Assembly (NCBI GenBank): GCA_963826715.1
Contig: CAWGYA010000002.1
Coordinates: 64,001 to 128,000, forward strand
Source: Candidatus Bathyarchaeota archaeon
GTDB lineage: Archaea; Thermoproteota; Bathyarchaeia; Bathyarchaeales; Bathycorpusculaceae
Direction: 5' to 3'
Length of the DNA stretch: 64,000 nt
Position numbers and translations under genes: made by a program. Position 1 is the first letter of the stretch; each line of letters begins with the position of its first letter. Of the stretch, positions 22,435 through 29,293 are shown piece by piece. Below the pieces are notes generated by a model. That model did no database searches. It had not been told where the DNA came from and was given only the letters and a program-made list of their open reading frames with translations.

Positions 22435-22519
22435 CTACTGCACTAATTGCTTTGCTTAGATATTACTCTCCCCACGGAACAGGCTGTTCTCAGAGAAGAA
22501 CACTTATTGTGTTTAATTT

Positions 22520-22585
22520 GGGGTCTGTCATTTTGTCGAATTCTTCATCTTTCCCGATCAGACTGGGACGGCGACATCATCCCCC
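22520..22585 (-). ncRNA. box C/D sRNA, predicted guide for 23S Gm2251 (E. coli numbering); att target of the integrated element
   Basis: GGGGG-AUGAUGU(C)-CGCCGUCCCAGU(12-nt guide)-CUGA(D')-UCGGGAAAG-AUGAAGA(C')-AUUCGACAAAAUGA-CAGA(D)-CCCC; terminal G/C stem. Confidence 0.65.
22563..22585 (+). repeat. attL core (23-bp direct repeat)
   Basis: CTGGGACGGCGACATCATCCCCC identical to 27661-27683. Confidence 0.9.
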
Positions 22586-22643
22586 AACGATTGAAACACC
22601 GTCCCAGTGCTTTAGGGTTTTGGTAAGGGAAAGATGAAAATGA

Positions 22644-23588
22644 ATGAACCAAAAAATCGTCAAAGAACTCTTAAAGCAACTCCAAGAGGAAACCCAAGAC
22701 CCCCAAGACATAGGAAAACTCAACATCACAAACATAATCCTCTGGATGAAAAAACAAGCTTATGAACCAACAACTATTCAGCGAGTAGTTAAAGAACTAA
22801 AACATTTAGAGCGAAACTGTAACACATCCAAACCCGAAGAAGTGAAGCTATACATCGCAAATAAGGCTGTATCGAATGCAAGAAAGGAGAATCTCATAGA
22901 AGCTTACAACATAGCAATTCAATCGTTAGGATTAACATGGAATAAACCATTTTATCAACGCCAAGACAAAAAGCGCAGAGCACCGAAAGAAGAATTAGTC
23001 CAGTTTATCATAAATCACGTCAAGTTTCCATTGAATCTAAAATTAAAAATGAGTAGAGATTTAGGTTCAAGACCAATAGAGCTTACATGGCTAAAAGTCC
23101 AAGACATAGACCTAACCACAGGAAGGACAGACCTCACAGGTGCCAAGCACACAATCGGCAGAGAAGGCAAAATCAAACAAGACACCTTAGAACTGCTAAA
23201 AAGATACATCAAACGAGAGAATCTAAATCCGACAAGCATTGTATTTCCAACGAGTTCAGATGTTTTAAGCACCTGTTATAGGCATGCAAGAAACAGCCTT
23301 GCAGAAAAATACAGCATGCCTGAACTTAAACAAGTACAACTCTACGACTTCCGCAGACGAAAAGGCACCAGAGAATACAAGCTATCGAGTCATAATTTTT
23401 TACACGTTAAAAGAATCTTGGGACACAAAGACGCAAGAAGCACTGAGAAATATATAACCGAAGATGAACAAATCGAATGGATGCCAATAAAATGCACAAC
23501 TGACGAGGAAATACAGCAAGCAATCAAAGAAGACTGCGTCTTAGTATGCCAAGCGAACGGAATTACGTACTTTAAGAAGCCTGCATAG
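22644..23588 (+). CDS. tyrosine recombinase/integrase
   Basis: GSRPIE (R), GAK (K), LYDFRR, ILGH, TEKY (Tyr nucleophile). Confidence 0.9.
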   Translation: MNQKIVKELLKQLQEETQDPQDIGKLNITNIILWMKKQAYEPTTIQRVVKELKHLERNCNTSKPEEVKLYIANKAVSNARKENLIEAYNIAIQSLGLTWNKPFYQRQDKKRRAPKEELVQFIINHVKFPLNLKLKMSRDLGSRPIELTWLKVQDIDLTTGRTDLTGAKHTIGREGKIKQDTLELLKRYIKRENLNPTSIVFPTSSDVLSTCYRHARNSLAEKYSMPELKQVQLYDFRRRKGTREYKLSSHNFLHVKRILGHKDARSTEKYITEDEQIEWMPIKCTTDEEIQQAIKEDCVLVCQANGITYFKKPA

Positions 23589-25108: not shown

Positions 25109-26116
25109 TTACCCGCAATCTCCTTTACATTTGCCTTCATGCGCTACTTCCCAAAGCGGTGTGCCGTCATCTGTAAACATACTTAGGATTTCGCCCCGTC
25201 GAGTAAGCAACAGCTTTTTTTCGCCTAAGTACCGCAGGTGAACAAGCTCAGAGTTGCAGATTGGGCACTTGCGCTGAATTCCAACGTCTTCTTCACCGTT
25301 GATAATCTCCATTTTTCTGTAAGAGTAAGCACCAAACCATGTTGTGGCATGTGATTTTTTGGAACCTCTGCGAACAGAGCAGTGATTTAACTGGTACCAG
25401 CAAGTGCCGCCGATAGTTTTTCGTTTGTCTAAAACCTTGACAATCCAGCCGTCTTTCTTGTTCTCTCTACGTGTAACGCCTTCAAAGCCTTTGCAGGCGT
25501 AGCAGTCGCCGCCTTTGCATTTTCTGCACATACCATACCCTTCGCCGCCGACAAAGCCAAGAATGTGGAAGTGAGGACTCCAACGCCACCCTACGGGAAT
25601 TCCTTTTATTCTTGATTCTTTTCGGTTAGCATAGCGAAAACCATGAAAAATCAGGGAGCCGCCGATTATGCCACGATTAGCCAAGAGCCGAACTACTTTT
25701 TTGCGCAACGTTTCAAGGTTTAAGCCATAATCTTCACTATGGACACTCGCAACAATATGTTCAACTGGCGAGCCCAAACGGTTAGACGCTACTTTTAGGC
25801 GTGCTTCCATTCGGTAAGCTTCACGAACCGCCCAACCATACTTGTAACAAACGGGGCAAGTGGGTTTATCACATGAATGATAGATAGGTTTGACAAAAAT
25901 GGCGTTTTCTATTAGGCTCTCATCAAAAAAACGTGCTTGATTATGTAGTTTGTAGTTTAAACACCCTATGTGTTTGTTAAATGTCCCGCATTTGTAACTT
26001 GTTTGTATTCCGTGACCAACTAGTTCATATTCGCCATAACTCCAGAAGTCATTGCGGAATTTTGAGGCTAAACTATCATAGAGGATTTGTATTTGTTGTG
26101 CCATTTTTTTCGCCAA
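25109..26116 (-). CDS. rolling-circle replication initiator, HUH endonuclease with Zn-binding motifs
   Basis: Motif 1-like HIVASV, FHGFR, motif 2 WSPHFHILGF, motif 3 YQLNH; several CxxC pairs. Confidence 0.75.
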   Translation of the reverse strand: MAKKMAQQIQILYDSLASKFRNDFWSYGEYELVGHGIQTSYKCGTFNKHIGCLNYKLHNQARFFDESLIENAIFVKPIYHSCDKPTCPVCYKYGWAVREAYRMEARLKVASNRLGSPVEHIVASVHSEDYGLNLETLRKKVVRLLANRGIIGGSLIFHGFRYANRKESRIKGIPVGWRWSPHFHILGFVGGEGYGMCRKCKGGDCYACKGFEGVTRRENKKDGWIVKVLDKRKTIGGTCWYQLNHCSVRRGSKKSHATTWFGAYSYRKMEIINGEEDVGIQRKCPICNSELVHLRYLGEKKLLLTRRGEILSMFTDDGTPLWEVAHEGKCKGDCG

Positions 26117-26178
26117 TCAGGGTAACGCTAACAATCTATATATGGTGGTATATAACATACCTTAGCTTGGGAAAACAT

Positions 26179-26781
26179 ATGGCGAGCAATAAATCAAAAG
26201 AATATATAGTAAAGACTTTAACCAAAAACGATACATTACCTTCACTACAAAAAGCGATTGTCACCTATATGGCTGATAACGAGCCTAAAACAATCCGTCA
26301 ATTATCAAAAGGTCTTTCAAAAGATTACTCAGCGACATACACTTCTTTTAAGAGTCTAGAGAAGAAAAAATTAGTATCGAAAACAACTGTAAAGCGTTAT
26401 CGTGAGCAAGATTTCGATTGTTACTGGTTGACCGATGAAGGTATGATAATGGCGTTAATGGAAGGTGCTGACGCTGACAAGTTACTTGCGCAAATAAAAA
26501 CTCTAAATCCTGATGCAGAAATTACCCATTGCTTCTTACAGGTAATCCCCTTGTTCGACCCTGTTATAGTGCGAACCGCTTATTCATACGTAAAAGGAAA
26601 AGGGACACTTGGATTTAGTGAAGTTGCACAGATTATTCTTTCAGGGACAGCAGAAGCTATGGATATAGAAACGGGAAAGAGAATTGCAACTATACTTAAG
26701 CAGTATCCAGAACAATATGCTAAATTGAAGTATGTTGTCCAAGAAATGATAAAGACACTTAGCCAGTTAATCGAAGAATAG
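26179..26781 (+). CDS. winged-helix DNA-binding protein divergent from rep
   Basis: Likely start ATG 26179; TIRQLSKGLSKDYSATYTSFKSLEKKKLV...YWLTDEG wHTH. Confidence 0.7.
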   Translation: MASNKSKEYIVKTLTKNDTLPSLQKAIVTYMADNEPKTIRQLSKGLSKDYSATYTSFKSLEKKKLVSKTTVKRYREQDFDCYWLTDEGMIMALMEGADADKLLAQIKTLNPDAEITHCFLQVIPLFDPVIVRTAYSYVKGKGTLGFSEVAQIILSGTAEAMDIETGKRIATILKQYPEQYAKLKYVVQEMIKTLSQLIEE

Positions 26782-27585: not shown

Positions 27586-27603
27586 CTAAAGGCTTATAAA
27601 TAG
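27586..27603 (+). promoter_or_regulatory. BRE-TATA promoter near the element right end, pointing at att
   Basis: CTAAAGGCTTATAAATAG about 60 bp before the att core. Confidence 0.5.
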
Positions 27604-27660
27604 AAACACACAATAAGACAAACCAGTAATTTAGTCTCAGAAAATTACTTTGCCCTAAGG

Positions 27661-27683
27661 CTGGGACGGCGACATCATCCCCC
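27661..27683 (+). repeat. right att core (23-bp direct repeat)
   Basis: Identical to 22563-22585; similarity extends imperfectly to CACCGTCCC. Confidence 0.9.
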
Positions 27684-28016
27684 GATGAATAACGCACCGT
27701 CCCCGACTAAAAAGCCTTGGGTTCAAGTCGTTAAGATCAATTATGCGATATTCATTTGACTCAATCTTTAGACAGATTTTGCTGAAAAATAGATGGTTTT
27801 GTAGATTCGACTGAAAAGAATGTGTCCCGCTCTGGGGCAATATCTCTGTTTAGTTGTTTTCACATGATCCAACCAATTTAAAAAATTCTAATTTTGGCAC
27901 TACTAAATCGTTCAAAGCAATAGCATTTTGCAAATAGTTTTGACATTTCGAAGGAAAAATTTGAAGTAATCAAGTTTAAGATTCACTTGCTTGCATGCTC
28001 GTTTCTCGAACCATTC

Positions 28017-28322
28017 CTAAGTACACTTGATGACCTTCTGTGAAAGCCAACAATGATCACACAATGGCTCATAAATTATGCAATAGTCTTCCTCTTTATT
28101 TTCGTAAAAAATTAAGCCTTTATCACCCAAAAAGACTCGTATCGTATCACTTACTCTGACGCCCCTCAAAATAATGTAAAAGCCACAGTCATCTTTGTCA
28201 ATTGAAATAAAAGATGGTTCTCCTAAACCTTTATGATCCAACGCTTTTAATATATTAACTGCTTTTAATCTATCCAAGCGTAAACCACCCAATAATCTAT
28301 CAGCTGATTCAATATATAACAT
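28017..28322 (-). CDS. hypothetical protein (likely TTG start at 28277)
   Basis: ORF with GGTGG RBS-like sequence before TTG-GAT-AGA. Confidence 0.45.
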   Translation of the reverse strand: MLYIESADRLLGGLRLDRLKAVNILKALDHKGLGEPSFISIDKDDCGFYIILRGVRVSDTIRVFLGDKGLIFYENKEEDYCIIYEPLCDHCWLSQKVIKCT

Positions 28323-28837
28323 TATGTATTAGATATCAAAACTACGTAAACCTAATTCATTTTGCTTGTGCTGATTAAGAAGAGCCAAATGATTTTCAAG
28401 ACTATACATAGAGTTTTTAATTCGCCCATAAGCCATCTTTAGAAATGAAGGTAATTTCTTTAGAACCCAAAAACCAAAACAAATATTAGTAAACGGACAA
28501 AAAGGACGGATTTTTGGTGACCTTTTTCTTTTTTGAAGTCGAAAAGATATAAATCGTAAACGCAAAACAAATCTTCTTAGTACTTTGATCCTTTGGAACG
28601 CAATAATATTGGGAAGAGCAGGTTGTTGCGTTAAGAAAGCCTAACAGTCAGCGTCCACCTTTTTTTGGTATTTGTGCTCAATCCGTCTTCTTGTTGTGGG
28701 CTCATGAGATAATAAAATTCAATTGTTCTTACCATTAGTGACTGCAAGCGAAACGTAAATGATTATGGTTAGAGCTCTAAAACCCATTAAAACCAAAAGA
28801 CGATATATAGAAAAACTTATAATCGGAACAAAAGCTT

Positions 28838-29293
28838 TTGACATCAAGTGAAAAAATGGACGTCGACCCTGGTTTAGTTATATTCGCAATATTAACAATC
28901 CTTTCTATCATTATCGCTTTAACTATCGCAAAAAAATTTAGCAAAAAACCGCACAAAACACTCACAAATTTGATAGCCGCCAATATTGTTTTAGACATTA
29001 CAGCAATAGCGATTTGGGCTCTATTTCCCGGCATTCGATGGACGGTTTATAATTTGGATTTCGTGATTGTAAGCATAGAAGCAGCTGTTGCATCAGGACT
29101 GTTTGCTATTACACTATATGGGTTAATGAAAACAAAAAGATGGGCTCCAATTTTAGCAATTATACTCACCATTAGCCAACGAGCGTTTGCTAATTATGTG
29201 TTCTTTTTATCAATCATGAACTCAATCACTATAGTTTGGAGTTTGTTAATTATCTATTTTGCTTATTTGGAGATAAAACATTCCAGCACTTAA
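28838..29293 (+). CDS. integral membrane protein
   Basis: About 5 hydrophobic segments. Confidence 0.65.
   Translation: MTSSEKMDVDPGLVIFAILTILSIIIALTIAKKFSKKPHKTLTNLIAANIVLDITAIAIWALFPGIRWTVYNLDFVIVSIEAAVASGLFAITLYGLMKTKRWAPILAIILTISQRAFANYVFFLSIMNSITIVWSLLIIYFAYLEIKHSST

Follow-up and report, generated by a model that had tools for sequence, protein, structure and literature searches.

What is the function of the short leader that lies between a conserved small RNA (sRNA) gene and a tyrosine integrase gene (int) in this archaeal genome? The question concerns positions 22544–22646 of the 64-kb window, by which we mean the whole stretch of Candidatus Bathyarchaeota DNA analyzed here; its positions serve as coordinates throughout, and labels of the form L### and G### denote loci and genomes, respectively, in the comparison set. 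An earlier note on this DNA had described three blocks in the leader, each complementary to a sequence elsewhere at the junction or at the far end of the element, and had offered three ways of reading them: as an RNA switch that responds to the state of recombination, as a guide RNA akin to a bridge RNA, or as symmetric sites for proteins on DNA. All three blocks, as well as a B recognition element (BRE) and TATA box at the far end of the element, are present where that note had placed them. The best explanation that we can offer, which taken as a whole we regard as modestly probable, is that 22544–22646 is the left attachment site (attL) junction of a 5.1-kb integrative element that lies in a conserved C/D-box sRNA gene of the minus strand. 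For the leader, the reading that fits best is a dense P' arm, in which a putative integrase half-site and a back-to-back replacement promoter for the sRNA would be packed against the ribosome-binding and start context of int. More notable than the leader itself is the target, a C/D-box guide RNA gene that serves as a shared integration hot spot.

The sRNA gene and the repeats that delimit the element are laid out as follows.

22517–22585, minus strand: host C/D-box-type sRNA, which reads from 22585 to 22517 as GGGGG, C box AUGAUGU, 12-nt D' guide CGCCGUCCCAGU, D' box CUGA, loop UCGGGAAAG, C' box AUGAAGA, variable spacer, D box CAGA, and CCCC
22563–22585, no strand assigned: attL core CTGGGACGGCGACATCATCCCCC, which spans the sRNA 5' stem, the C box, and most of the D' guide
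27661–27683, no strand assigned: core of the right attachment site (attR), the second copy of the 23-bp exact repeat

The two cores form an exact direct repeat that brackets the 5.1-kb element. These are the only two copies in the genome, and no third att core is found in the window. Among the 24 other genomes of the genus, 22 keep the sequence to the left of the core, TTCATCTTTCCC included, and it is also kept in some families elsewhere in the order; to the right, the sequence varies from genome to genome, with unrelated flanks. Since the left side is conserved whatever adjoins it on the right, the left arm of the 12-bp inverted repeat considered below belongs to the host and the right arm to the element. 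The boundary therefore lies where the earlier note had drawn it, and the case that it named as fatal to its proposal, in which both arms derive from the element, does not apply. When contigs from four DNA runs are placed on the window, they appear as short, low-depth pieces that end at both cores, with no joint and with one loose end at 27681.

The target had been taken to be a host small RNA, and the comparison bears this out: it is of the C/D-box type and is conserved in 22 of the 24 other genus genomes as well as in other families. Boxes beside a terminal stem, together with an internal D'/C' pair, give the C/D-box layout, with one deviation each in the C, D, and C' boxes, the standard forms being RUGAUGA for C and CUGA for D. 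The Rfam matches, all on the minus strand, are below threshold (snR67, 20.4 bits against a cutoff of 55, E 0.058; snoU31b, 14.1 against 37), and the homologues at L030 and L029 match sR7 with 26.8 and 22 bits against 37 (E 0.02 and 0.36); no Rfam CD-box model exceeds its gathering score for this sRNA or for the homologues tested. A length of 12 nt is common to all D' spacers. The D' guide pairs at 11 of its 12 positions (10 of them contiguous, two G·U) with large-subunit (LSU) ribosomal RNA at GCUGGGGCGGCA, in the same position in two complete genomes of the genus, G003 and G014; the site lies near locus position 3860 in L085/L086. This is the sole match of at least 11 for the D' guide on either strand of four rRNA loci. 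An exact-pattern search of the rRNA allowing one mismatch gave nothing above its reversed-pattern control, and the site emerged once G·U pairs were allowed. By the D'+5 rule, methylation would fall on the second G of the GGGG in the LSU site. We take this residue to be the 23S P-loop G that carries a universal 2'-O-methyl group, equivalent to E. coli G2251 and yeast G2619, the latter being a target of snR67. The likeness to the yeast snR67 guide (Rfam RF01177) lies in its being the best, though sub-threshold, Rfam match of the window sRNA, and in the D' guide falling on LSU GCUGGGGCGGCA; here, in contrast, the RNA is archaeal and 66 nt long, with a variant D box (CAGA), a variant C' box (AUGAAGA), and a score far under the gathering threshold.

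Two further observations on the sRNA can be recorded. When the D guides of L001–L012 are set against those of L028–L032, L040, and L042, the guide is 12 nt long and conserved (..CAUGACGGA) in other families and in some members of the genus (L028, L040), while in much of the genus, the window included, the D spacer is 14–17 nt long and variable, as if the function of the D guide had been lost. In G003, exact or near-exact copies of the core region lie at two distant places (positions 601625, 1100358, 1103151, and 1107334 of C1); the cluster of three resembles a tandem array, and the separate copy may be a second sRNA locus.

Relatives of the integrase were sought in related genomes, in genome contigs titled Bathyarchaeia (15 loci), and in metagenome contigs (30 loci). 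The collected 72 loci hold 77 occurrences of the core, or 71 once duplicate flanks are merged. All of the integrase relatives found, some 45 loci in three lineages, adjoin this core in one orientation; 43 stand beside the sRNA and the others lie in tandem arrays. The lineages are told apart as follows.

Type A, the type of the window (23 beside the sRNA): an N-terminal extension, with GG(G)AAAGATGAA before the ATG
Type B (11 beside the sRNA): a short integrase that starts near MLWMKKQAYE, with no such motif
Type C (9 beside the sRNA): GGAGG, then ATGAAGAAAC...

No relative of the integrase was found in a viral contig collection, nor was the pattern of far end plus core that free circular forms would show there. 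Tandem arrays are common, the attR core frequently being followed by the leader of another type. The window itself offers an example, listed here.

27684–27726, plus strand: type C leader remnant of a second element, a 43-nt run identical to L023 followed by divergence

The sequence to the right of attR is thus not native host flank, and we regard this remnant as evidence of a decayed tandem array. The right flank of L006 is likewise a type C integrase leader. Native right flanks, recognizable because they share the start of a common downstream host gene, are seen in L029, L030, and L032 and at the second cores of L068 and L012.

Several side observations belong with these arrays. Small, unannotated minus-strand open reading frames (ORFs) at 28017–29034 may belong to the decayed second element. 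In the type B leaders of L066 and L072, the right half of the core (GCATCATCCCCC) is present once more in direct orientation, together with a duplicated TATA-like stretch, which suggests tandem duplication inside the P' arm. The archaeal sRNA also appears, with a type A integrase and a second element, on the L017 contig, which is filed under a bacterial Sulfotelmatobacter metagenome-assembled genome and is probably a binning error.

The blocks of the ~58-bp int leader are read here as parts of an element P' arm, in which the mirror-image sequences would be features of the DNA. The two blocks nearest the core are these.

22597–22608, plus strand: element-borne inverted copy of the guide region, CACCGTCCCAGT, 12–14 nt from the core
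22610–22623, minus strand: predicted replacement sRNA promoter, with a TATA box (reverse complement CCCTAAAG) and a BRE-like CCAAAA, 25–38 nt upstream of the sRNA 5' G-run

The first of these, block i, pairs with ACTGGGACGGCG (22562–22573) at 11 of 12 positions by Watson–Crick rules, with one C·A mismatch. The complementarity reported for it stands, but the left arm falls inside the repeat rather than in the host flank. A copy of CCGTCCCAG with at least 8 of 9 matches stands at a constant 13–14 nt from the core in 23 of 25 flanks of type A, in 8 of 11 of type C, and in 1 of 12 of type B; the five flanks that we regard as native (L029, L030, L032, and the second core of both L012 and L068) reach 4–7 of 9. 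The block is therefore borne by the element, as judged from these flanks. Its left partner is the invariant guide region, and the variants all lie in the right arm: type A has C-to-T changes at two columns, which give G·U on the plus strand, and type B has G-to-A changes, which favor the minus strand instead. The core itself can be read as CTGGGACG / GCGACAT / CATCCCCC, that is, 8+7+8, with imperfect inverted 8-mers around 7 bp whose arms match at 5 of 7 positions (our own reading of the sequence), and attL/attR polymorphisms seen in relatives bracket the exchange within core positions 11–19. Beside this canonical-looking core, CACCGTCCCAGT would act as an extra half-site, and block i is most likely an additional, third integrase half-site in the P' arm. 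Of the options in the earlier note, that of symmetric DNA sites is the one that fits block i best.

Block ii had been reported as a pairing between the leader and the far end of the element. CTTTAGGG (22610–22617) and CCCTAAGG (27653–27660) do form seven Watson–Crick pairs and one G·U. While CCCTAAGG occurs once in the 64-kb window, at least one match is also found in 73 of 100 shuffles, so the 8-mer is not significant on its own. As a maintained pairing the block also fares poorly, since the far-end CCCTAAGG is conserved while its partner in the leader alternates between CTTTAGGG and, in many type A elements, CTAAAAGGG, and in L017 is CTCTTAAGCG. The complementarity thus holds and the pairing is not kept; on the minus strand, both CTTTAGGG and CTAAAAGGG resemble a TATA box. 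Every one of the 71 right flanks, whether native or supplied by an element, reaches its highest A+T fraction, 0.85–1.00, at positions −25 to −29 relative to the 5' G-run of the sRNA, and 59 of the 71 have a 7-mer with at least six A/T that starts at 21–31. The peak in the window is CTTTAGGG itself, and the adjoining TTTTGG has the reverse complement CCAAAA, which resembles the purine-rich pre-TATA element of native flanks (CAAGGC-TTTTTAG) and of the far-end promoter (AAAAGC-TTATAAC). Because integration takes place within the first 23 bp of the sRNA, the gene is cut off from its own promoter, and the element would supply, on the minus strand, a TATA/BRE (CTTTAGGG plus TTTTGG) to an sRNA whose promoter is displaced. 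Block ii is better explained as this replacement TATA box; the conservation of position is seen directly, and from it we infer promoter activity.

At the other end of the element, three features face or abut the core.

27586–27603, plus strand: outward-facing BRE/TATA, AAAGGC-TTATAAAT (CTAAAGGCTTATAAATAG), at the far element end and directed toward attR or, in the circle, the joined site attP
27625–27649, no strand assigned: perfect 8-bp palindrome AGTAATTT-N9-AAATTACT, just downstream of the far-end TATA
27645–27660, plus strand: conserved element-end motif TTACTTTGCCCTAAGG, which abuts the core and contains CCCTAAGG

That the BRE/TATA would sit upstream of int only in the circle had been proposed, and here the comparison lends support. 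Across all types, eight of the 12 other element ends, as well as the window, have the motif AAAGC-TTATAACTAG or a close variant, which faces the core from a distance of 57–108 nt; in tandem arrays it would also face int. This far-end promoter, identified by its motif, would read across attP into int solely in the circle or in a tandem array. From its conservation and orientation, control by recombination state probably exists by way of promoter connectivity, and a promoter joined only in the circle is the best-supported piece of the earlier interpretation. The palindrome could be an operator or the 5' hairpin of an RNA; other far ends have palindromes of their own at this location, such as GGGACTTAGAGTCC in L023 and L019 (GGGA(C/T)TTAGAGTCC). 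The end motif, (A)TTACT(TT/AA)GCCCTAAGG or a close variant, is present at 11 of 12 other element ends, across integrase types. A further candidate, that the far end is a diverged direct copy of the sRNA, was rejected because 557 of 2,000 shuffles score as high.

Block iii, which stands immediately before the int ATG, has the following two arms.

22544–22555, plus strand: left arm of the 12-bp inverted repeat, host DNA, antisense of the sRNA loop and of the first 5 nt of the C' box
22627–22638, plus strand: pre-ATG 12-mer GGGAAAGATGAA, equal to the sRNA loop/C' segment, purine-rich and in a Shine–Dalgarno (SD)-like position

The 12-mer is a perfect inverted copy of TTCATCTTTCCC, with 12 of 12 pairs, and the region of the left arm is present beside all element types. 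The earlier note had predicted that the leader copy would covary with the target flank. We aligned 22 distinct type A attL junctions, with identical flanks merged and with four left out: L021, which has no host flank; the second core of L024, a remnant behind an element end; L033, whose leader is divergent and whose int is not intact; and L063, whose host flank contains an N. The full 12 pairs form in two of these junctions, and the central 10 bp are intact in 16. In six, the repeat is disrupted on one side, which is the leader side in L016, L051, and L052 and the host side in L054, L055, and L064; of the type A elements here, L054 alone lies in a host whose sRNA loop differs. Position 1 of the host arm is G in 11 of the 22 without a matching change in the leader, and the terminal pairs are broken in 11 and 14 of the 22. 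Paired cells amount to 87.1%, as compared with 86.4% in shuffles, and the covariation term from RNAalifold is +0.05. With no convincing compensatory change in the 22 junctions and six uncompensated disruptions, the predicted covariation is not borne out: the 12-mer is not kept by compensatory evolution. In types B and C, sister lineages that use the same site, the 12-mer is absent.

What the leader motif does retain is its composition. The variants GGAGGAATACAG, AGAGGGATGTA, GGGAGAGATAAA, GGAAAGAGGAA, GAGGGATG, and GGGAGAGAT stay purine-rich and SD-like (GGAGG, GAGGG, GGGAG) where GGAGG, AGGAG, and AGGAA peak upstream of the ORF starts of the genome. The anti-SD was taken from G003 and G014, the 3' end of the window genome's own 16S rRNA not having been found; 16S rRNA in the genus ends in GGAUCACCUCCU. 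We would read GGGAAAGATGAA as the purine-rich pre-ATG segment of int, in an SD-like position, and its match to the sRNA loop/C' box could be what is left of an inverted target copy or could reflect a chance agreement of two constrained purine-rich motifs. An out-of-frame upstream ORF of 43 codons that begins at the ATG within the 12-mer (22634) was also considered and set aside as not conserved, for in relatives it runs to 1–147 codons and in three the ATG is absent.

Several observations weigh against an account in which the leader is a P' arm and nothing more. In the whole 2.64-Mb genome, the only two copies of the 12-mer are those at this junction, and perfect inverted repeats of at least 12 bp with a 3–100-nt loop number 39 genome-wide. 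Among 1,769 ORF-start windows, int is one of three that share at least 12 nt with the non-core sRNA (10 share at least 10 nt), and the local alignment between sRNA and leader beats 2,000 of 2,000 shuffles. Such rarity makes function or common descent likely, and our account names neither. In the lineage of the window, moreover, the SD-like GGGAA starts at −17, farther from the ATG than the genome-wide peak; the leader blocks keep the order of the sRNA (guide, then TYTGRT resembling D', then loop/C'), which would fit a deliberate inverted pseudo-copy; and the half-site and core assignments are drawn from sequence patterns. One rival is the RNA switch of the earlier note, in which a plus-strand transcript from the host side would carry the sRNA antisense and the leader and form three helices that hide the ribosome-binding region of int, while in the circle the far end would pair with the middle of the leader instead and leave the ribosome-binding site open. 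In predicted folds of the five type A elements for which both ends are available, with attP joined in silico, the mean probability that positions −18 to +3 of the ATG are unpaired is 0.11–0.28 in attL and 0.50–0.80 in attP, a difference seen in five of five. RNAalifold finds three nested helices, the third being ATCAGA with TTTGGT; in 16 of the 22 junctions the outer helix keeps its 10-bp core; most of the one-sided changes are G·U-compatible on the plus strand; the 12-mer is rare genome-wide; and, at 10 of 19 type A loci, the first ORF of at least 120 aa encountered to the left is directed toward attL, so read-through is conceivable there. The switch nevertheless lacks a compensatory change in any of the 22 junctions, its covariation term is zero, and it has to accommodate the six one-sided disruptions and the terminal pairs broken in 11 and 14. 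A subclade (L016, L051, L054, L017) has a degenerate leader motif regardless of the host motif, and types B and C use the site without the type A leader. In the window, the gene upstream of attL is on the minus strand, so no plus-strand source of an attL transcript is obvious. The contrast between attL and attP folds, for its part, is an automatic consequence of repeats for which there are DNA-level explanations. The difference in folding is thus reproduced, and a promoter joined in the circle is supported by conservation, while a maintained helix with the host flank is not seen, and we regard the switch as unlikely. Its fullest form is quite unlikely in our view: there an inverted sRNA pseudo-copy would give an attL-only, three-helix hairpin of ~26 bp that masks the int ribosome-binding site, an alternative hairpin in the circle would free it, and this sensor would work together with a circle-specific promoter.

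The outer 12-mers could instead be sites for protein. On this reading, a stronger version of the option of symmetric sites in the earlier note, they, and perhaps motifs of the GGG-N-AAAG type in general, would bind the N-terminal extension of the integrase or a regulator of the element or host, in a symmetric attL architecture. The motif is inverted on both sides of the core and is non-random in the genome, and types A and C, whose integrases have the N-terminal extension of ~30 aa, have a AAAGATGAA-type motif at the start of int, while type B is without both. That correlation may be trivial, because the motif sits on the int start. The inner arms are not equidistant from the motif, being 6 nt away on the host side and 18–23 nt away on the leader side, and indels alter the spacing from one relative to another, so that the helical phase is not preserved; the type B hosts L060, L065, L066, L068, and L072 have an sRNA loop without GGGAAAG, and the likeness of the far end to the sRNA is matched by 557 of 2,000 shuffles and so is not significant. 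Protein sites of this kind we consider unlikely. It is very improbable that the leader mimics the internal D'/C' K-loop of the sRNA, with GUGA, a loop, and AUGAAAA in most type A elements binding L7Ae, a protein of the host C/D RNP, which would then regulate translation of int. The likeness to the sRNA does exceed the 12-mer, with UGA upstream and GGTGA-N1–5-GGAAAGATGAA in most type A leaders, and leader and sRNA are identical in sense rather than complementary, as a mimic needs. When compared with the sequence requirements of K-loops, however, the window lineage has GGTAA and loses the G of the sheared pair, and the C'-like part is without its GA in L016, L051, L052, and L054; since GGTGA is also simply an SD sequence, an SD followed by an AUGA start resembles a K-loop by default. 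The remaining option of the earlier note, that the leader RNA has donor- and target-matching segments that program the recombinase, was likened to IS110-family elements, whose recombinases are not of the tyrosine type, whose bridge RNA loops covary with target and donor, and whose promoter may be completed in the circle. The likeness consists in a non-coding stretch upstream of a recombinase with target- and donor-like sequences: the leader matches both the core/guide region and the host flank, and a promoter is probably joined only in the circle. Here, in contrast, int is a conventional tyrosine integrase with its catalytic set conserved, and the ~45 relatives are all found at a single, invariant target, which gives no sign of reprogramming. 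Across the 22 junctions, the segment that matches the host changes in an uncompensated way, and it is missing in two sister lineages that recombine at the same site, and no conserved RNA structure extends beyond the repeats. A programmable guide is therefore not supported, and we find it barely credible. Sites on the DNA together with promoter connectivity fit best overall, and the 10–12 nt that the start region of int shares with the sRNA loop/C' box stand beside this reading as a small puzzle.

The genes of the element that bear on this account are listed here.

22644–23588, plus strand: tyrosine integrase int, 314 aa, with an in-frame TGA directly 5' of the ATG
25109–26116, minus strand: 335-aa protein, possibly a rolling-circle Rep (Rep_1-like), a lead only
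25981–26781, plus strand: winged-helix-type putative regulator, 266 aa, with weak, sub-threshold Pfam matches to HVO_A0114, PadR, and TrmB

By its profile matches and conserved residues, int is an ordinary tyrosine integrase. It matches Pfam Phage_integrase (PF00589) over residues 128–275 with 30 bits against a cutoff of 27.1 (E 5.4e-07) and PHROG 216, integrase, with E 8.5e-11; a search of PDB sequences gave no match at E 0.01 or better. R143, K168, Y234-D-F-R237 (in which Y replaces the first H), H261, and Y270 are kept in at least 21 of 22 relatives, their catalytic roles being assigned by position and spacing rather than by structural alignment. The 335-aa protein has no Pfam or PHROG match. 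In ESM Atlas feature matches its nearest clusters are Bathyarchaeota hypotheticals, and the next, at 0.95–0.96, are clusters in which 41–64% of members carry PF01446 Rep_1. The element may be an integrated rolling-circle plasmid.

The arrangement has partial counterparts among known systems. According to the main text of PMC8371274, pTN3-like integrases target the 5' half of tRNA genes, with the recombinant gene then expressed from a promoter of the element, and pTN3-type enzymes belong to the SSV-type, "suicidal" integrases, in which integration divides the integrase gene. With the tRNA-gene integrases as described there, our element has in common site-specific entry into a small, highly conserved RNA gene that stays intact because the displaced segment is carried by the element, an int that adjoins the rebuilt gene, and tandem arrays at one hot spot. 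The target here, in contrast, is a C/D-box sRNA gene. Our literature searches did not find such a gene as the target of an integrase, and the terms "sRNA" and "non-coding RNA" are absent from the main text of PMC8371274, though its supplementary tables could list some. The likeness to the pTN3-like elements of Thermococcales, again as the main text presents them, extends to an attB that is the 5' half of an RNA gene, the loss of the gene's own promoter, and an element-borne promoter beside int (PMC8371274); here, however, int is intact and the supplied TATA would stand back to back with the start of int. For expression that depends on the state of recombination, the haloarchaeal virus SNJ2 offers a parallel, since the passages of PMC13107129 that concern it describe an operon that runs across attP only after excision, circularization of the provirus joining its ends into a unit that includes int. 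In SNJ2, as set out in those passages, transcription starts inside int and the unit serves replication, whereas here a predicted far-end promoter would read across attP into int.

If this account is true, an invariant C/D-box guide RNA gene would serve mobile elements in the way that tRNA genes do, as a conserved integration hot spot. In Bathyarchaeia, the gene for a guide of P-loop ribose methylation would be a site common to at least three integrase lineages, with each element bringing a replacement promoter for the RNA that it interrupts. The known target range of archaeal integrases would thereby be extended, and the junction would provide a compact natural case of a back-to-back promoter and att architecture, combined with control of the integrase by promoter connectivity across attP.

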